Assembly: GCF_024298765.1 (NCBI RefSeq)
Contig: NZ_CP101210.1
Length of the DNA stretch: 64,000 nucleotides
Origin: Escherichia coli
GTDB lineage: Bacteria > Pseudomonadota > Gammaproteobacteria > Enterobacterales > Enterobacteriaceae
Reading direction: 5' to 3' (one strand)
This document shows, in pieces, positions 3,537-53,327 of this stretch. The notes under the pieces were generated by a model. That model saw nothing but the letters and a program-made list of their open reading frames with translations, was not told the DNA's origin and made no database searches. Numbering within the stretch: position 1 is the first letter of the stretch; every line of letters starts with the position of its first letter. Both the position numbers and the translations under genes were made by a program.

Positions 3537-4858
3537 CGCGACAGTTTTGCCAAGAGCGTTTTGCGCGTGATCCCTAACTGACGGGCGGCTTCGGTTTTGT
3601 TGCCGCCCGTTTTCTCCAGTGCCGCAAGAATCACCTCTTTTTCGACTTCCACCAGCGGCTGAATATCCTGACTTTGTACCAGCGGGATCGGCGTACTCGC
3701 AATCGCCAGCGGCAGCTCGCGTTCGGAAATATATTCCCCGGTCAGCAGCACCACCGCCCGTTCCACCGTGTTTTCCAGTTCACGAATATTTCCCGGCCAG
3801 TCGTAGTGAATCAGCAGATCCATCGCCTGGGGCGTAAAACCTTTTACCGCCTTACGATTACGCTCGGCAAAGCGCTGAAGAAAATGGTTTGCCAGCAGAG
3901 GAATATCTTCCCGCCGCTGACGCAGCGACGGAACTTCAATCGCCACCACGTTCAGGCGATAGTAGAGATCCTGGCGAAAACGCCCGGCATTCACCTCTGC
4001 GGCAAGATCGCGATGAGTCGCCGCAATCAGCCGGACATCAACCGAGATGGTCTGGTTGCTGCCGACACGCTGAACTTCGCGCTCCTGAATCGCACGCAGC
4101 AGACGAACCTGCATCATCGGCGAGATATCGCCAATTTCATCGAGAAACAGCGTGCCGCCGTCCGCCTCAACAAAGCGCCCTTCCCGGCGTTTATCGGCTC
4201 CGGTAAACGCCCCTTTTTCGTGACCGAACAATTCAGATTCCAGCAAGGATTCGTTGAGTGCCGCACAGTTGAGCGTTACCAGTGGTTTTTCACTCCGTGC
4301 GCTACTGGCGTGAATCGCCCTTGCGACCAGCTCTTTACCGGTGCCGGAATCGCCGTGGATCAGCACCGTGGCTTCCGATGGCGCGACGAGGGCGATTTCA
4401 CTGAGCAGGTGTTGCATCGCCGGGCTTTTACCGACCATACCGAACTGGCTGGCAGTCACCACAGGCGTTTCAGCATCAATACTGTGCGTATGTGCGAGCG
4501 CCTTTTCCAGCGTCGCCTGCAGGTTATCGAAATCCAGCGGCTTGATGAGATAATCCAGCGCCCCGGTTTTCAACGCTTCTACCGCCGTCTCGACGCTGGA
4601 GTACGCGGTCATAATCAGTACCGGAATCGCCGGATTTAACGCTTTGATCTCTTTTAGCGTGGCAATGCCGTCCATCTCTGCCATTCGCACATCGCAAAGC
4701 ACAAGATCAAAAACCTGTTCCCGCACCTGCTCCAGCGCCTGTCGCCCGCTGTTCGCCAGCGCGACGTTATAGCCCCAGCCGCGCAGCAAAGCCTGCAAAA
4801 TAGTGCAGTGGCTAATGTCATCATCCACCACCAGAATATCGATATTATCGTGCGTCAT
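3533..4858 (-). CDS. zraR: Sigma54-dependent response regulator (NtrC family)
   Basis: 441 aa; receiver domain, AAA+ sigma54 activator motifs ([14 protein letters not shown]), C-terminal HTH; 4-bp overlap with zraS. Confidence 0.95.
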
Positions 4859-43858: not shown

Positions 43859-44959
43859 ATGACCCCCGAACACCTTCCAACAGAACAGTATGAAGCGCAG
43901 TTAGCCGAAAAAGTGGTACGTTTGCAAAGTATGATGGCACCGTTTTCTGACCTGGTTCCGGAAGTGTTTCGCTCGCCGGTCAGTCATTATCGGATGCGTG
44001 CGGAGTTCCGCATCTGGCACGATGGCGATGACCTGTACCACATCATTTTCGATCAACAAACCAAAAGTCGTATCCGTGTGGATAGCTTCCCCGCCGCCAG
44101 TGAACTTATCAACCAGTTGATGACGGCGATGATTGCGGGTGTGCGTAATAATCCCATTCTGCGCCACAAGTTGTTCCAGATTGATTACCTCACTACGCTA
44201 AGCAATCAAGCGGTTGTTTCCTTGCTGTACCATAAAAAGCTGGATGATGAGTGGCGTCAGCAGGCGGAAGCCCTGCGCGATGCACTGCGCGCGCAGAATC
44301 TGAATGTGCATCTGATTGGTCGGGCAACGAAAACCAAAATCGAGCTGGACCAGGATTACATCGATGAACGTCTGCCGGTCGCAGGGAAAGAGATGATCTA
44401 CCGTCAGGTAGAAAACAGCTTTACCCAGCCGAACGCGGCGATGAATATTCAGATGCTGGAATGGGCGCTGGACGTAACCAAAGGCTCAAAAGGCGATTTG
44501 CTGGAGCTGTACTGCGGCAACGGTAACTTTTCATTAGCACTGGCGCGCAATTTTGATCGGGTATTAGCCACCGAAATCGCTAAGCCGTCGGTCGCTGCCG
44601 CGCAATACAACATTGCCGCTAACCATATTGATAACGTACAAATTATTCGTATGGCGGCAGAAGAATTTACTCAGGCGATGAATGGCGTACGCGAGTTTAA
44701 CCGCCTGCAAGGAATCGACTTAAAGAGTTATCAGTGCGAAACCATTTTTGTCGACCCACCGCGCAGCGGTCTGGACAGTGAAACCGAGAAAATGGTGCAG
44801 GCGTATCCACGTATTCTGTATATCTCCTGCAATCCGGAAACGTTATGCAAGAATCTGGAAACATTAAGCCAGACGCACAAGGTCGAACGTCTGGCTCTGT
44901 TTGATCAGTTCCCCTACACGCACCATATGGAGTGCGGCGTATTACTGACCGCGAAGTAA
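43859..44959 (+). CDS. trmA: tRNA (uracil54-C5)-methyltransferase
   Basis: 366 aa [29 protein letters not shown]; SAM-MTase motifs. Confidence 0.95.
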
Positions 44960-44964
44960 AACCC

Positions 44965-44990
44965 ATGCCGGATGCACCAGCATCCGGCAT
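44965..44990. terminator. REP-like hairpin between convergent trmA and yijD
   Basis: atgccggatgcaccagcatccggcat perfect inverted repeat. Confidence 0.5.
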
Positions 44991-44998
44991 GATACCGA

Positions 44999-45358
44999 TT
45001 ACTCAGCAACTTCCTGCTTACGGTTACGCATCTTCGCGCCAATCCAGAACACCATAATGACGGAGAGTACTGCCGGGAAGAAGTTAGAGCCGATATCCGG
45101 ATATTCCGCACGAACTACCGTGCTGTACAGCAGTACGCCGAGAATAAAACAGGCAGCTGCCAGACCCGGCAAGCCTACCGGCATGGTGCGATTAAGATAA
45201 CGTTGATGCAGGCAGTAAACCGTCAGCAACAGGGAAATAATCGGGAATACAGAAAATGGCACAATGGAGCTAAACAGCGCTGCGAAAGTACCATTAATCG
45301 ATAAGCCAGCAACCAACGCCAGCAGCAGCGTACCTCTATCTTGATTTGCTTGTTTCAT
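44999..45358 (-). CDS. yijD: DUF1422 inner membrane protein
   Basis: 119-aa hydrophobic ORF immediately downstream of fabR. Confidence 0.88.
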
Positions 45359-46005
45359 TACTCGTCCTTCACATTTCCCGGAATAATTGCGGTTTTCTCT
45401 TGTTCACGGCGATACCAGTAATAAGCCCCTTTAGAAATCATTCGCAGTTGCAGTACCAGTCGCTCTTCTAATTGCCGACGTTGTTCGACGCCGACATCCA
45501 ACGCCTCGGCCCCCGCACTGAAGACAATCGTCACCATTGCTTCGGCTTGCGCTTCAGTAAACGCACGCGGCATATGGTTTTCGAGTTCCAGATAGTCCGC
45601 AAGTTCCGCAATGAAGTGCTGAATTTCACGCGCAACGGCGGCACGAAACGCAGCGGAGGTGCCGGAGCGTTCCCGCAATAATAACCGGAAGGCGTTAGGA
45701 TTATTACCGATGAACTCCATAAATGTGGAGACCGAGGTGCGGATCACACTCCCGCCTTTGGCGATACGCTGACGCGCCTGACGCATGAGTTGGCGTAGCA
45801 TTAAACCGCTCTCATCAACCATGGTCAGACCCAGTTCGTCTACGTCGCGGAAATGCCGATAAAAAGAGGTGGGAGCAATGCCCGCTTCACGCGCCACTTC
45901 ACGCAAACTCAGGCTGGCGAAGCTGCGTTCAGCACTTAATTGGCTAAATGCGGCTTCCACCAGCGAACGGCGGGTTTTTTCTTTTTGTTGCGCTCTTACG
46001 CCCAT
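45358..46005 (-). CDS. fabR: TetR-family repressor of unsaturated fatty acid biosynthesis
   Basis: 215 aa from [52 protein letters not shown] (TetR HTH); track ORF runs 32 codons further upstream. Confidence 0.9.
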
Positions 46006-46339
46006 CACGATGTCTGAATCCTTGCCAAAAGTACTGCTGGCACTATACCAGAGAATGAACATACTGGATTGCTCCAGTATTGTGAATGAACGGTAACGCA
46101 ATAAAACATATTTACTGCAATTCTTTGGCCGGTTCTTTTACGTACAACGGAAACCTGCCGCTTAAACGGAGAGTATCGTCGATAAAAATCCAATAAAACG
46201 TTCAGGTCAAAAGTAAGAAACAGACAAAGCAAAGGCCGCTCACGATATAGCCAGATAAATGACGGGGATCAATTGGCTTACCCGCGATAAAATGTTATCA
46301 TTCTGTTGCTTTTATGTATAAGAACAGGTAAGCCCTACC

Positions 46340-47740
46340 ATGCCACATTCCTACGATTACGATGCCATAGTAATAGGTTCCGGCCCCGGCGGCGAAGGCG
46401 CTGCAATGGGCCTGGTTAAGCAAGGTGCGCGCGTCGCAGTTATCGAGCGTTATCAAAATGTTGGCGGCGGTTGCACCCACTGGGGCACCATCCCGTCGAA
46501 AGCTCTCCGTCACGCCGTCAGCCGCATTATAGAATTTAATCAAAACCCACTTTACAGCGACCATTCGCGACTGCTCCGCTCTTCTTTTGCCGATATCCTT
46601 AACCATGCCGATAACGTGATTAATCAACAAACGCGCATGCGTCAGGGATTTTACGAACGTAATCACTGTGAAATATTGCAGGGGAACGCTCGCTTTGTTG
46701 ACGAGCACACGCTGGCGCTGGATTGCCCGGACGGCAGCGTCGAGACACTAACCGCTGAAAAATTTGTTATTGCTTGCGGCTCTCGTCCATATCATCCAAC
46801 AGATGTTGATTTCACGCATCCACGCATTTACGACAGCGACTCAATTCTTAGCATGCACCACGAACCGCGCCATGTACTTATCTATGGTGCTGGAGTGATC
46901 GGCTGTGAATATGCGTCGATCTTCCGCGGTATGGATGTAAAAGTGGATCTGATCAACACCCGCGATCGCCTGCTGGCATTTCTCGATCAAGAGATGTCAG
47001 ATTCTCTCTCCTATCACTTCTGGAACAGTGGCGTAGTGATTCGTCACAACGAAGAGTACGAGAAGATCGAAGGCTGTGACGACGGTGTGATCATGCATTT
47101 GAAGTCGGGTAAAAAACTGAAAGCTGACTGCCTGCTCTATGCCAACGGTCGCACCGGTAATACCGATTCGCTGGCGTTACAGAACATTGGGCTGGAAACT
47201 GACAGCCGCGGACAGCTGAAGGTCAACAGCATGTATCAGACCGCACAGCCGCACGTTTACGCGGTGGGCGACGTGATTGGTTATCCGAGCCTGGCGTCGG
47301 CGGCCTATGACCAGGGGCGCATTGCCGCGCAGGCGCTGGTGAAAGGTGAAGCCACCGCACATCTGATTGAAGATATCCCTACCGGTATTTACACCATCCC
47401 GGAAATCAGCTCTGTGGGCAAAACCGAACAGCAGCTGACCGCGATGAAAGTGCCATATGAAGTGGGCCGCGCCCAGTTTAAACATCTGGCACGTGCACAA
47501 ATCGTCGGCATGAACGTGGGCACGCTGAAAATTTTGTTCCATCGGGAAACAAAAGAGATTCTGGGTATTCACTGCTTTGGCGAGCGCGCTGCCGAAATTA
47601 TTCATATCGGTCAGGCGATTATGGAACAGAAAGGTGGCGGCAACACTATTGAGTACTTCGTCAACACCACCTTTAACTACCCGACGATGGCGGAAGCCTA
47701 TCGGGTAGCTGCGCTAAATGGCTTAAACCGCCTGTTTTAA
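46340..47740 (+). CDS. sthA: Soluble pyridine nucleotide transhydrogenase
   Basis: 466 aa [38 protein letters not shown]; FAD/NAD Rossmann motifs. Confidence 0.97.
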
Positions 47741-48640
47741 CACTTTATCGAAATGGCCATCCATTCTTGCGCGGATGGCCTCTGCCAGCTGCTCATAGCG
47801 GCTGCGCAGCGGTGAGCCAGGACGATAAACCAGACCAATGGTACGGCGTGGTTCCGGCTTAATACACGGCAAATAAACAACCCCATCGCGTTTGCGCTCC
47901 GGCGGCACAGCCAGCGCAGGCAGTAAAGTGATCCCGCTACCTGCCGCCACCATGTTGCGCAGAGTTTCCAGGCTGGTCGCGCGGAAGTGTGTATCTTCAT
48001 CCGCCCCGGCTTCAAAACAGAAACCCATTGCCTGATCGCGCAAACAGTGACCGTCTTCCAGCATCAGCAGTTTTTCCCCTGCCAGATCGGCCATCGGTAC
48101 GCATTCGCGGTTCGCCCACGGATGGTCTTCATAGATAGCCAGCAACATTGGCTCATCAAACAACGGCACTTCAATGAATGCTTCGCTCTCTTTCACCAGC
48201 GCGAGGATCACGCAATCGAGTTTGCCGCTGTCCAGTTGCGCCAGTAACTGGTGGGTCTGTGCTTCATGCAGATACATTTCCAGCTTTGGAAAGGTCTGGT
48301 GCAGCATCGGGATAATATGCGGTAGCAGGTACGGTCCAACCGTGGGAATCAGACCAATATGCAGCGGTCCGGACATCGTCTCGCCCTGCTGGCTTGCCAT
48401 CTCTTTAAGGACTTTCACCTCACGCAGCACGGTACGCGCCTGATCCACCAGCAGCATTCCCGCCTGGGTGAATAACACTTTACGGCTGGTCCGCTCCAGC
48501 AACATCACACCCAACTCATCTTCCAGCTTACGAATTTGCCCGCTAAGCGTCGGCTGGCTAACGTGGCAGGAATCTGCCGCACGCCGAAAATGGCGGTGTT
48601 CGGCCAATGCCACCAGGTACTCAAGATCACGAATATTCAT
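47723..48640 (-). CDS. oxyR: LysR-family hydrogen peroxide-inducible regulator
   Basis: 305 aa from [44 protein letters not shown]; redox Cys residues present; 3' end overlaps sthA by 18 bp. Confidence 0.97.
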
Positions 48641-48735
48641 TATCCATCCTCCATTGCCACGATAGTTCGCGGCGATAGGTAGCATAGCAACGAACGATTA
48701 TCCCTATCAAGCATTCTGACTGATAATTGCTCACA

Positions 48736-48848
48736 GAAACGGAGCGGCACCTCTTTTAACCCTTGAAGTCACTGCCCGTTTCGAGAGTTTCTCAACTCGA
48801 ATAACTAAAGCCAACGTGAACTTTTGCGGATCTCCAGGATCCGCTTTT
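48736..48848 (+). ncRNA. oxyS: OxyS small regulatory RNA
   Basis: GAAACGGAGCGGCACCTCTTTTAACCCTTGAAGTCACTGCCCGTTTCGAGAGTTTCTCAACTCGAATAACTAAAGCCAACGTGAACTTTTGCGGATCTCCAGGATCCGCTTTTTTTT; divergent from oxyR. Confidence 0.92.
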
Positions 48849-48891
48849 TTTTATTCTACAGGCCCACAGCAAGAGAGCCTGATAGTAACGG

Positions 48892-50175
48892 TTACTCAAT
48901 CCGATCTTTGACAATAAAGAAGTAACACAGCGCCCCGGTGAACGTCACACAGGCCGCGATAACCAGCGCCAGATTAAACGAGTGTGTGGTATCCACGACC
49001 CAACCGGTTACGATCGGAGCAAAGGAAGCAAAAACAAAACTGCCAAAGTTTTGAATCCCGGCGATGGAAGCCACTTTTGTTTCTGACACCATCACCTGCA
49101 CCAGCCCCCATGCAGATGTTCCCGCGAAATGCACGCAGAACAGCGCCATTGAGATAAACGCTACCGCCTGGGCTGGCGAGGAAGATTGCACGACCAGCAA
49201 CGTGCCTAATGCCGACATCATCAAACCGCAGACAATCGCCGTTTTACGCGTCTTCGCCAGGTCATAGCCTTTTTTCGCCAGCCGATCGACAACAATACCG
49301 TTAACCCACATCCCGACCGCCGCCGCGAGGAAAGGAATTGCCGCCACCCAACCGGTTTTCGCCAGACTGAAACCTTGTTCGGCCTGCAAATAACCGGGTA
49401 ACCACGCGATGTAGAGCCAACCGGTATAATTGACGCCAGAGAAACCTAAAATCATCCCCCAGGTTGTCCGATGCTTAAACAGCGCCAGCCACTCGCTAAA
49501 TTGTAACTGTGGACGCGGTTTAACCGGCGCGGAGAGATATGTCCGTTCTTCCTCGGTCAGGACAAACTGCGCCCGGTTGCGATACCACGCGTACCAACAG
49601 ATCCCAACCAGAATCCCTGCTACGCCGATGATGACAAACATCGTCCGCCAGCCCCATGCCAGTTGCATCAATACAAGAGCAGGAGGCGCGATAGCCTGAC
49701 CGATAACGGTAGATGAGTTAAAAATCCCCAGCGCCGTGCCGCGTTCTTTTTGCGCATACCAGTCGGTGATCGACTTTACTCCCGCAGGCATAAATGGCGC
49801 TTCGCCAATACCCAGACCGATACGCATTAAAATAAAGTGGCTAAAAGAATTAACCATTCCTGTTAATGCCTGCATTAATGACCAGAATATTAAGCCTGCG
49901 CCTAACACTATTCGTGGGCCAAAGCGGTCTAGCAAAATACCGGAAGGAAGTTGTGAAAAACCATAAGACAGAGAAAATGCAGAAAGCAAAACACCAAACT
50001 CGGTAGCGGATAATCCTAACTCGCCACGAATTGCTTCACCTGCCACGCTCAATGACGAACGGTCGAGAAAATTAACGATCCCCGCCATAAATAATAAAAC
50101 CAGGGTCACTGTCTGAATACGACGAATCCGTTGCGGTTTATTACCCGCAACACTGGTTGACACATCAACGTCCAT
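48892..50175 (-). CDS. MFS transporter, anion:cation symporter family (hexonate/hexuronate-type)
   Basis: 427-aa ORF; MFS motif A GILLDRFGPRIV; about 12 hydrophobic segments; strong RBS aaggag; resembles the DgoT/ExuT/GudP/RhmT class by eye. Confidence 0.85.
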   Translation of the reverse strand: MDVDVSTSVAGNKPQRIRRIQTVTLVLLFMAGIVNFLDRSSLSVAGEAIRGELGLSATEFGVLLSAFSLSYGFSQLPSGILLDRFGPRIVLGAGLIFWSLMQALTGMVNSFSHFILMRIGLGIGEAPFMPAGVKSITDWYAQKERGTALGIFNSSTVIGQAIAPPALVLMQLAWGWRTMFVIIGVAGILVGICWYAWYRNRAQFVLTEEERTYLSAPVKPRPQLQFSEWLALFKHRTTWGMILGFSGVNYTGWLYIAWLPGYLQAEQGFSLAKTGWVAAIPFLAAAVGMWVNGIVVDRLAKKGYDLAKTRKTAIVCGLMMSALGTLLVVQSSSPAQAVAFISMALFCVHFAGTSAWGLVQVMVSETKVASIAGIQNFGSFVFASFAPIVTGWVVDTTHSFNLALVIAACVTFTGALCYFFIVKDRIE

Positions 50176-50241
50176 TTTTAGCTCCTTGAGCGGAATTAAT
50201 CGATTTGATGAATATTCAGAAAATAATTAAGCGAACCGCTA

Positions 50242-51456
50242 TTACCAGTTCCACAATGTGCCATCTTCCAGTCGTGCGACGGGGAGATACGCCGGGTCAT
50301 ACGGATATTTCGCCGCCAGTTTCTCATCGAAAGAAATACCCAGCCCCGGTTCATCGCCTGGGTGCATATAACCTTCATCGAAGCGCCAGCTATGCGGGAA
50401 GACTTCAAGCATTTGTTCGGAATAGCCCATGTACTCCTGAACGCCAAAGTTTGGCACCCAGAGGTCAAAATGCAGCGCCGCCGCATGGCAAACAGGCGAT
50501 AAATCTGAAGGGCCATGCGAACCGGTACGTACCTGATAAAGCGATGCAAAATCGGCAATCCGTCGCATCCCGGTAATGCCGCCTGCATGGGTAATCGTCG
50601 TGCGAATATAGTCAATCAGCTGCTCTTCGATTAACTGCTTGCAGTCCCAGATACTGTTAAACACTTCACCGACCGCAATCGGCGTCACGGTATGCTGACG
50701 AATCAGACGAAAACATTCCTGATTCTCGGCAGGCGTCGGATCTTCCATCCAGAACAGGCGGTAATCTTCAATGCTCTTCCCAAAGCGCGCCGCTTCGATG
50801 GGGGTCAGGCGATGGTGCATGTCATGCAACAGATGTTCGTTAAAACCGAACTTATTACGCACCGCTTCAAATAACTTCGGCGTAAAATCGAGATACTTTT
50901 CTGAAGACCACAACTGCTCTTCTGGCCACAGGCCTTTGGTTGCTGGTTCATACGCCAGTCCTTTGCCCTTCGCCAGACCATAGGTGGTTTGCATACCCGG
51001 TACACCACACTGCACACGAATCGCCTTAAAGCCCATCTGCTGGTGCTTTGCATAGTCTTCAAGGACTTCATCAATCGTACGCCCGGTGGTGTGGCAATAA
51101 ACCATAACGCCTTCACGAGAAGCACCACCAAGCAGTTGATACAATGGCATATTTGCCGCTTTTGCTTTGATATCCCACAACGCCATATCAATGGCAGAAA
51201 TGGCTGACATCGTGACGGGGCCACGTCGCCAGTAAGCACCTTTATAAAAGAATTGCCAGATATCTTCGATACGGCTGGCATCGCGGCCAATTAGTTGTGG
51301 ACAAAGATGATCTTTCAGATAAGAAGCGACCGACAATTCGCGACCATTTAACGTGGCATCTCCTAATCCACAAAGTCCGCTTGCAGTGGTTATTTTAAGC
51401 GTAACGAAATTACGCCCTGGGCAAGTAACAAAAACATCTGCAGCAATAATTTTCAT
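50242..51456 (-). CDS. Enolase-superfamily dehydratase, D-mannonate dehydratase (ManD/RspA-like) subgroup
   Basis: 404 aa from [24 protein letters not shown]; ManD-type motifs ([25 protein letters not shown]) and metal ligands in HDMHH / WMEDP / GEVF; RBS aggag. Confidence 0.85.
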
Positions 51457-51857
51457 TATTGCAATCTCCTGTGTTGTAAATAGACGTTTCAAACTTAATT
51501 TTGCGCCTACTACCATACAAGAGAGAAAGAGCGATTATTCAACCATGATCACATTAAAAATAAAAATTTCTACCGAGGAGAAAAAACACCCTCAAAAACC
51601 ACCTGAATAATTAGCTATCATCGTTAAAACAACACGTTAAATAATCACATAACAAACTCCATTAATCATTAAAAATGAACACAGCAATAGAAATGAATTA
51701 TATTCAATTAATTAAAGTATGTATTGGCTGATGTATTGAAAATATAATTTTTATGGGGAGAGTGAAGGTAAAGAAGACGCAAGAATAAAAAGGAATGTGA
51801 CAAATAATGGTTCTGGTTGGGCGTTAAATTTAAGGTCACCAGAATACTGACAAATTT

Positions 51858-51912
51858 CTGCCTGATGCGGCGTAAACGCCTTATCCGCCTACGAAGTGTC
51901 GCACTTTGTAGG
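51858..51912. repeat. REP/BIME-type palindromic repeat downstream of argH
   Basis: gcctgatgcggcgtaaacgccttatccgcctac followed by an imperfect palindrome gaagtgtcgcactttgtagg. Confidence 0.6.
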
Positions 51913-51953
51913 CGTGGTAAGCTCCCCATTTTCAGGGGAGCAATATAAACAAA

Positions 51954-53327
51954 CTACTCTAACCGAGCTTGCGCAAAAGCAATCGCCTGCGCCACCTGCT
52001 GCGGTGAGACGCCGCCTTTTGCAGCACGCTTGTCGAGGCACGATTGCAGCGACAGAATCGGATAGACATCTTCGCCAATCACCTGGCTGAATTTCTGCAA
52101 CTCACTGAGCGGCAGATCTTCCAACGCTTTGCCCTGACGAATGGCTTCCACCACAGCTTCACCCACAATATGGTGCGCCTCGCGGAACGGTACGCCTTTC
52201 GCCACCAGATAATCCGCCAGTTCAGTAGCGTTGGCGTAACCCTGCTGCGCCGCTTCCTGGCAACGCGGACGTTTCACCTGAATGCCGTCCAGCACCAGCG
52301 CCGCCATATGCAGGCAGTCCAGCCAGGTATCGAGCGCGTCGAACAGACCTTCTTTGTCTTCCTGCATATCTTTGTTGTAAGCCAGCGGCAAACCTTTCAG
52401 CGTCATCATCATGCCGGTTAACGCCCCCTGCACCCGACCGCATTTACCGCGAATCAGCTCCAGCGCATCCGGGTTTTTCTTCTGCGGCATTAATGATGAA
52501 CCGGAAGTCACACGGTCAGAAAGCTCCACAAACCCCGCTTCGCCGGTGTTAAAGAAAATCAGATCTTCAGCAAAACGCGACAGATGCACCATGCCGATAG
52601 CGGCAGCAGAAAGCAGTTCCAACACATGGTCACGGTCAGAAACGCTGTCGAGACTGTTACGGGTCGCCGAAGCAAAGCCCAGCCAGCCTGCTAACTGTTC
52701 ACGGTCGATTTCATAGGCCGTTCCTGCCAGTGCGCCACAGCCTAGCGGGCTGACATCCAGACGCTTAAGCGCGTCCTGCAAACGGCTTTCATCACGCGCC
52801 AGCATCTCAACGTAGGCCAGGCACCAGTGAGCGAACGTCACCGGCTGGGCGCGTTGCAGGTGAGTGTAACCCGGCATCACCGCGTCCTGATTGTTCTGCG
52901 CGGTCTCGACCAGAGCGGATTGTAACTGCCGGTTAGCCGTCAGCAACTCGCTAACGGTATCTTTGCACCACAGTTTCAGGTCAGTTGCTACCTGATCATT
53001 ACGGCTACGCCCGGTATGCAGTTTTTTGCCTAACTGACCCACTTTGTCGATCAGTTTGCCTTCCACCCAGCTATGGATATCTTCGGCGTCGCTTTCAAGG
53101 ATTTGTTGTGGCCTGGCGCGAACATCTTCCAGCAGCACGTTCAGCGCCTCTTCCAGTTGCGCCTGCTCTTCTGCGGTTAACACGCCGACCGTTACCAGGG
53201 CTTTGGACCAGGCCACAGAGCCAACAATATCCTGCTCCGCCAGACGGTAATCAAAGCGCAGTGAGTCGTTGAATTGTTTGAACCGTTGATCTGCTGCCTG
53301 GGTAAAACGCCCGCCCCAAAGTGCCAT
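51954..53327 (-). CDS. argH: Argininosuccinate lyase
   Basis: 457 aa [44 protein letters not shown]. Confidence 0.97.

Follow-up and report, generated by a model that had tools for sequence, protein, structure and literature searches.

The genes sthA and oxyR of Escherichia coli are transcribed towards each other and there is no DNA between them, which raises the question where their two mRNAs end, what defines these ends and whether the arrangement matters for either gene. The window analysed here is a stretch of 64,000 nucleotides of E. coli chromosome from contig NZ_CP101210.1 (RefSeq assembly GCF_024298765.1); all positions refer to it unless K-12 is named. In the ORF list and in RefSeq, sthA (46340–47740, plus strand) encodes the soluble pyridine nucleotide transhydrogenase of 466 amino acids and ends with a TAA stop codon at 47738–47740. 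The gene oxyR (47723–48640, minus strand) encodes the LysR-type peroxide regulator of 305 amino acids, which starts with MNIRDLEYL, and its TAA stop codon is the reverse complement of 47723–47725.

An initial annotation of the window, made from the letters alone, had claimed an 18-bp 3' overlap of the two genes at 47723–47740, and the ORFs, the stop codons and RefSeq agree with this claim to the nucleotide. The shared tail-to-tail stretch, TTAAACCGCCTGTTTTAA, codes on one strand for L-N-R-L-F-stop of SthA and on the other for L-K-Q-A-V-stop of OxyR, with the codons of the two genes in exact antiparallel register; each stop codon faces a leucine codon, TTA, in the other gene. Two genuine coding sequences (CDSs) of housekeeping genes on opposite strands thus share their 3' nucleotides, which makes sthA and oxyR a convergent overlapping gene pair, and the amount of intergenic DNA is zero. 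The identical overlap is annotated in RefSeq for a strain that is 100% identical to the window over a query of 2601 bases (46300–48900), and for K-12 MG1655 (oxyR 4158490–4159407, sthA 4159390–4160790). Of 5426 complete E. coli genomes all but one (5425) have the locus of the 2.6-kb query, several of them with 100% identity.

The overlap is already known: it is part of the reference annotation, and four or more published data sets show overlapping transcripts of the two genes. What is added here is its conservation across the family, the interlock of stop and leucine codons, and evidence that hairpins of each transcript constrain the codons of the partner gene.

For the comparison between species, SthA was used to scan species-representative genomes, and the best 80 loci, all from Enterobacteriaceae and with 91–100% SthA identity, were retained. 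Two of them, one on a truncated contig (L023) and one with a frameshifted sthA (L082), were uninformative, leaving 78 species. The overlap is 18 bp long in 76 of these 78 and 27 bp long in Enterobacter soli and Pluralibacter gergoviae. In the latter two, Leu462 of SthA, the codon of which faces the oxyR stop, is encoded by CTG and oxyR therefore continues for three codons more. In the 76 others the codon is TTA (72 species) or CTA (4 species), as compared with a share of only 5.2% for TTA plus CTA among the remaining leucine codons of SthA. The OxyR codon facing the sthA stop is TTA in 73 species and CTA in 5. Both products are conserved to the final residue in 76 of the 78 species, and among the best 80 loci their C-terminal residues are nearly invariant.

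The use of TTA or CTA at the leucine codons facing the stops, together with the conserved overlap, indicates that the interlocked stops are kept by selection. Judged from these sequence comparisons, the overlap is not an effect of chance or of annotation. That the end of sthA or oxyR has been mis-called, the overlap being an artefact, has a negligible probability: the stops are unambiguous, both C-termini keep their length and sequence in 76 of the 78 species, and RefSeq agrees for both K-12 and the identical strain. In its geometry the pair is like other bacterial tail-to-tail overlapping genes, which have a short 3' overlap and in which the stop, TAA or TAG, is a leucine codon (TTA or CTA) when read from the opposite strand. 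Compared with these, sthA–oxyR is a standard case, and only its stability among the sampled species of Enterobacteriaceae is worth noting.

Published transcript ends inside the partner genes

Since there is no intergenic DNA, the 3' end of each mRNA must form inside the CDS of the partner. The initial annotation had accordingly expected mutual read-through into the antisense strand of the partner gene, an expectation that the CDS overlap by itself forces and that published K-12 data confirm. Transcript ends without overlap, which the annotation had named as the opposite outcome, are impossible because the CDSs themselves overlap. K-12 positions (x) were converted to window positions (w) by w = 47740 + (4159390 − x). 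Over 901 nt, window and K-12 are collinear and differ by 17 substitutions, all of them outside the stems of the hairpins described below.

The 3'-end mapping that had been suggested as a check is available from published Term-seq data (PMC7815308). In these data the dominant 3' end of the sthA mRNA lies at K-12 4159345 (minus strand), which is 47785 on the plus strand of the window, 45 nt beyond the sthA stop and inside oxyR; the authors placed it in the class "primary sthA / antisense oxyR". It was covered by 78,428 reads in LB at OD 0.4 and by 54,987 reads in LB at OD 2.0 (PMC7815308), numbers similar to those listed there for OxyS, and is missing from the list for glucose minimal medium. 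The terminal part of the RNA with this end is perfectly complementary to the final 63 nt of the oxyR mRNA. For oxyR itself the tables of PMC7815308 contain no curated Term-seq 3' end. The TERMITe supplements have no entry for sthA or oxyR, and a literature search on a terminator in the sthA 3' UTR found no report.

Some sthA transcription proceeds antisense through about 250–375 nt of oxyR and reaches a region of bicyclomycin (Rho) sensitivity. The sthA-strand region is at K-12 4159015 (minus strand; score 5.8, p = 6e-31) (PMC7815308), which converts to about 48115, some 375 nt past the sthA stop. On the oxyR strand the bicyclomycin-sensitive region is at K-12 4159509 (plus strand; score 5.1, p = 3e-16) (PMC7815308), which converts to 47621, some 102 nt beyond the stop of oxyR. 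These scores were calculated from 800-nt windows and have a low resolution, at which read-through and an independent antisense transcript are not separable. The operon map of Conway et al. (2014), to the extent that it is reproduced in PMC7373196, has a convergent transcript overlap of 379 bp, in which sthA ends 252 nt past its stop (47992) and oxyR 110 nt past its stop (47613). The zone of sthA read-through antisense to oxyR therefore extends on the plus strand from 47786 to 48115, with the operon-map end and the Rho region within it or at its border. The oxyR transcripts end on the minus strand at 47613–47629, a region that comprises the operon-map end and the bicyclomycin position; their portion antisense to sthA is about 102–110 nt long and includes two conserved hairpins.

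Hairpins within the codons of the partner

On the sthA side, folding predicts a hairpin at 47755–47780 on the plus strand (hairpin 1), composed of GGCCAUCC, a 10-nt loop and GGAUGGCC. It begins 14 nt past the sthA stop, within the oxyR codons for A-I-R...M-D-G-H, has a stem of 8 bp (−15.1 kcal/mol) and is followed by the tail UCUGCCAG. The mapped sthA 3' end at 47785 is located 5 nt beyond this hairpin, the tail up to it being UCUGC, without a U tract. Hairpin 1 thus has the stem but not the U tract of an intrinsic terminator and was not picked up by a consensus scan. A second sthA-sense hairpin predicted by folding (hairpin 2; 47782–47809, plus strand), with a conserved core in which 47786–47793 is paired with 47797–47804, lies beyond the mapped end. 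Hairpins 1 and 2 fold together with −33.4 kcal/mol (z = −3.8).

On the oxyR side two hairpins are predicted on the minus strand, both upstream of the mapped oxyR end at about 47613–47621. Hairpin A (47675–47710; −22 kcal/mol, z = −4.2) lies within sthA codons 449–460 and hairpin B (47630–47674) within sthA codons 431–445. The latter consists of AAAGGUGGUG...GCCGCCACCUUU followed by CUGUUCCAU; with −15.6 kcal/mol and z = −1.55 it is no more stable than shuffled sequences. Behind its stem (CCACC and partner) comes UUUCUGUUCC in E. coli; many species have UUUUUGCUCC there. With this stem and tail hairpin B is a candidate intrinsic terminator, but its length, its 13-nt loop, the low z-score, its absence from the hits of the consensus scan and the bicyclomycin sensitivity of the site speak against it.

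In the scan of 46000–49200 no canonical terminator made of a hairpin and a U tract was found just downstream of either stop. The statement of the initial annotation that there is "no intervening terminator" is thus correct in that there is neither intergenic DNA nor a canonical intrinsic terminator; what it missed is that conserved hairpins inside the CDS of the partner define the 3' ends. These hairpins limit the main read-through from sthA to 45 nt.

The hairpins are conserved. In hairpin 1, 98.8% of the alignment cells are paired over 71 distinct sequences when read in the sense of the UTR (97.5% on the opposite strand), and three pairs show compensatory changes. The commonest of these is A-U to G-C, found in 8 sequences, with the G-U intermediate in 2; in OxyR it corresponds to the change of an aspartate codon from GAT to GAC plus that of isoleucine ATC to valine GTC. 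Hairpin 1 was not predicted in 4 of the 78 species, namely at three Pseudocitrobacter loci, which a 3-nt indel keeps out of the alignment (A1), and in Enterobacter sp. BIGb0383. In hairpin 2, 93.0% of the cells are paired (82.6% on the opposite strand), two pairs have compensatory changes (C-G to U-A in 11 sequences), and one U-G pair is present in 71 of 71 distinct sequences. For the two hairpins taken together, changes on both sides of a pair were counted in 23 cells versus 6.8 in shuffles, and 0 of 500 shuffles reached 23; the species being related, these shuffle statistics overstate independence.

The corresponding values for oxyR are 92.6% paired cells in the sense of the UTR versus 75.8% on the opposite strand for hairpin A and 99.6% versus 85.9% for hairpin B. 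Hairpin B has six variable pairs with wobble changes only (U-A to and from U-G, or A-U to and from G-U), all of which are valid on the oxyR-sense strand. Double compensatory changes were not found in the oxyR-side hairpins in the species alignment; the strong conservation of SthA confines variation to third codon positions.

Variation at synonymous sites is lowest where these hairpins are encoded. In the last 35 informative codons of sthA the synonymous-site diversity is 0.38 as compared with a gene mean of 0.65, the lowest of 381 windows of codons along the gene (rank 1). In the last 15–25 informative codons of oxyR it is 0.32–0.37 as compared with 0.60, again the lowest (rank 1 of about 260). 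In both genes the region of low diversity spans far more than the six dual-coding codons. Within SthA, the stem codons for Thr443 and Thr444 are invariably ACC, whereas the loop codon for Thr436 uses all four bases. Codon bias or other causes could contribute to the reduced synonymous variation near the gene ends.

Could dual coding and protein constraint alone explain the conserved 3' ends, the hairpins being by-products without a function at the RNA level? The near-invariant C-termini of both proteins, the 91–100% identity of SthA among the best 80 loci and the lack of a double compensatory change in hairpin B would all fit. We nevertheless consider this very improbable. Only six codons are shared, yet the diversity minimum covers about 35 codons of sthA and 15–25 of oxyR, and a stem threonine codon is invariant where a loop threonine codon takes all four bases. 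Compensatory changes do occur, including one that joins a non-synonymous Ile-to-Val to a synonymous Asp change, and changes on one side of a stem yield wobble pairs solely on the UTR-sense strand. The hairpins at the 3' end of each gene appear to restrict synonymous change in the partner gene and, at one site, amino-acid change.

Formation of the 3' ends

The reading of the 3' ends that we favor, with a probability of roughly 0.65, is that transcription is terminated by Rho and that the RNA is then trimmed to the hairpins. On the sthA side, Rho would terminate the read-through about 250–375 nt inside antisense oxyR, and 3'-to-5' exonucleases would then shorten the RNA to hairpin 1, which would serve as a protective 3' cap and leave the stable end at +45. 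On the oxyR side, hairpin B with its U-rich tail and Rho would jointly set the 3' end, downstream of hairpins A and B. The RNA structures formed would put extra selection on the codons of the partner; this would account for the low synonymous variation and, in OxyR, for the coupling of Asp GAT-to-GAC with Ile-to-Val.

In the published bicyclomycin data read-through increases upon inhibition of Rho on both strands, as is characteristic of Rho-dependent terminators. By composition the sthA-sense RNA also contains a rut-like region, C-rich, G-poor and untranslated, upstream of the termination region: from +261 to +360 nt (48001–48100) the ratio of C to G is 2.1. In the oxyR-sense RNA the ratio is 1.3–1.6 from +61 to +200 nt. 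PMC7815308 attributes such trimming to transcripts terminated by Rho, and Rho-dependent terminators with mature 3' ends made by exonuclease trimming to a stem-loop were described by Dar and Sorek (2018), as summarized in PMC7815308. With this class sthA shares the downstream bicyclomycin-sensitive region after a C-rich, G-poor stretch, and the sharp 3' end a few nucleotides past a stable hairpin that has no U tract. It differs from the class in that the hairpin lies inside the CDS of another gene and constrains the codons of that protein.

The position 47785 may instead be the true site of termination rather than a product of trimming, with hairpin 1 (and hairpin B for oxyR) acting as non-canonical terminators of the overlapping bidirectional kind. 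In that kind, reported by Ju et al. (2019), a single stem-loop region reportedly serves as the end of both convergent transcripts, and Rho is not needed. The likeness is that sthA and oxyR are convergent and that stem-loops unlike those of intrinsic terminators define their 3' ends. The two ends are, however, far apart (47785 versus about 47613–47621), belong to different hairpins and are both associated with bicyclomycin sensitivity, and we regard this explanation as unlikely, although a serious one.

In the collision model for terminators of this kind the nascent stem-loop positions the converging polymerases, which are then released by head-on and trailing collisions; such terminators are neither intrinsic-like nor Rho-dependent, and a requirement for the stem-loop at convergent pairs was described together with the model (bioRxiv 10.1101/2022.10.23.513370). 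Hairpin 1, which without a U tract marks a sharp and abundant 3' end, and the conservation of the hairpins are what one would expect from it. The same preprint lets one predict poor collision termination for a weakly transcribed gene such as oxyR. The bicyclomycin-sensitive read-through on both strands is unlike the Rho-independent class, and the 3' ends are about 165 bp apart, behind separate hairpins instead of at one shared element. Rho-dependent termination with trimming, the reading preferred here, is in accord with the bicyclomycin sensitivity of both strands.

Overlapping transcripts and possible cross-talk

The concept of the excludon originates from Listeria. Its defining outcome is mutually exclusive expression of two neighbouring genes, and sthA–oxyR shares with it the transcript overlap and the double-stranded RNA. 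As in convergent excludons, the genes are neighbours on opposite strands, their transcripts overlap, and the complementary transcript ends form dsRNA that is cut by RNase III. The cut dsRNA was captured with p19 from 47675–48019 (PMC7373196, Table S1); the cluster is labelled "oxyR sthA, 3', Convergent" and contains dsRNAs of about 21 nt from both exponential and stationary phase. In an analysis with ExcludonFinder, oxyR–sthA is one of 165 convergent excludons present in at least 50% of 58 RNA-seq samples (PMC12288877, Table 1). The list is based on coverage, so that any CDS overlap qualifies automatically. Whereas the E. coli excludons have a mean intergenic distance of 95 nt (PMC12288877), in sthA–oxyR the CDSs themselves overlap. 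Taken together, the locus behaves as convergent excludons or pairs with overlapping 3' UTRs do, and its ends look Rho-dependent and hairpin-capped.

Whether high transcription of sthA lowers oxyR, or the reverse, via transcriptional interference or via duplex cleavage by RNase III is a separate question, and a positive answer would be compatible with any of the mechanisms of 3'-end formation discussed above. If it were so, the balancing of NAD(P)H would be coupled to the peroxide response. Besides the listing and the captured dsRNA, the sthA read-through of 250–375 nt into oxyR, the conservation of the arrangement across the Enterobacteriaceae sampled and the fact that sthA itself is regulated, as a target of Spot 42, speak for such a functional excludon. 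Conservation is, however, equally explained by the difficulty of separating interlocked stops, and no experiment was found that links the expression of sthA and oxyR. For SthA and OxyR, the proteomics data of PMC7373196 (Table S2), in which rnc mutants are compared with wild type, have final values of only 0.67–1.37, taken here to be fold changes. The authors of that study saw no clear relation between cleavage by RNase III and protein abundance (PMC7373196). We consider such repression via the overlap improbable. Nothing so far points to a strong effect of the overlap on the expression of sthA or oxyR, and any regulatory cross-talk is probably modest.

A more far-reaching proposal is that the abundant, hairpin-capped sthA end and the embedded structures form a selected module, in which transcription of sthA, set by the carbon source via Spot 42, tunes the oxyR mRNA by antisense pairing, RNase III or polymerase collisions. 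It is more speculative still, and we give it little credence. Under this proposal, too, the peroxide response would be tied to the balance of NAD(P)H, and the co-variation of Ile and Val in OxyR would be forced by the RNA fold of the partner gene. That the sthA 3' UTR is the source of an sRNA was also considered and rejected, the RIL-seq literature having sthA solely as a target of Spot 42.

The finding as such is ordinary and changes little. Its value is that of a clean and conserved example of how mRNA 3' ends can be defined without intergenic DNA; should the overlap couple the expression of sthA and oxyR, an extra layer would be added to a very well-studied stress regulator.

A search of 44000–52000 against Rfam at a permissive threshold yielded OxyS and a sub-threshold match to naRNA4 only, with no match in the overlap. 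OxyS is located at 48736–48845, and its terminator, a stem of 8 bp with a run of T behind it, is the clearest hit of the consensus scan of 46000–49200.

Transcript ends of sthA

In the K-12 Term-seq data for cells grown in LB to OD 0.4, the sthA 3' end (window 47785, K-12 4159345) is represented by 78,428 reads, more than the 63,516 that the table lists for the 3' end of the sRNA OxyS (PMC7815308). The list for glucose minimal medium from the same source does not contain the sthA 3' end at 4159345 (PMC7815308). The high read count and the absence from the glucose list could reflect a stable sthA 3' fragment, the level of which depends on the carbon source.

A second cluster of p19-captured double-stranded RNA is located at the sthA 5' end (window 46304-46507), and its antisense transcription start is given as K-12 4158793 (+) in NC_000913.2 coordinates (PMC7373196 supplement). 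Coordinate mapping places this start near window position 46360 on the minus strand, within sthA some 20 nt from its start, and directed toward fabR; therefore, sthA may also be overlapped at its 5' end by a long divergent fabR leader.

Variation of the locus among Enterobacteriaceae

Among the best 80 sthA-oxyR loci of the species scan with SthA, those of Enterobacter soli (L011) and Pluralibacter gergoviae (L075) have CTG as the codon for Leu462 of SthA, because of which the usual oxyR stop is lost. As a consequence, OxyR is extended by three residues (QTV or QAV) and the sthA-oxyR overlap is 27 bp long (locus positions 3875-3901). The otherwise conserved hairpin 1, the stem-loop in the sthA 3'-UTR, is not predicted at locus positions 3899-3965 in the three Pseudocitrobacter loci (L028, L032 and L035) or in that of Enterobacter sp. 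BIGb0383 (L049). In Pseudocitrobacter, SthA ends in LNRLW and OxyR is one residue longer. In Kluyvera genomosp. 3 YDC799 (L082) the sthA frame is broken after about 25 codons (locus position ~2501-2578) and the locus is one base shorter than the others; the break either marks this sthA as a frameshifted pseudogene or reflects a sequencing error.

Flanking genes

The stop codon of fabR overlaps the start codon of yijD by a single base (window 45356-45358; fabR extending from, and yijD to, position 45358), an arrangement identical in K-12. Such sharing of stop and start is the usual layout of translationally coupled genes in one operon.

Directly past oxyS lie, on the minus strand, genes for an MFS transporter (427 aa) and for D-mannonate dehydratase (manD) (window 48892-51516), whereas in K-12 MG1655 the immediate neighbor of oxyS is argH. 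The two genes thus look like a strain-variable insertion adjoining the oxyS-oxyR control region. Downstream of manD, a stretch at 51810-51890 (minus strand) weakly matches the Rfam family naRNA4 (27.6 bits versus a gathering score of 59.5), a REP-derived nucleoid-associated RNA, and is probably a REP-like element.
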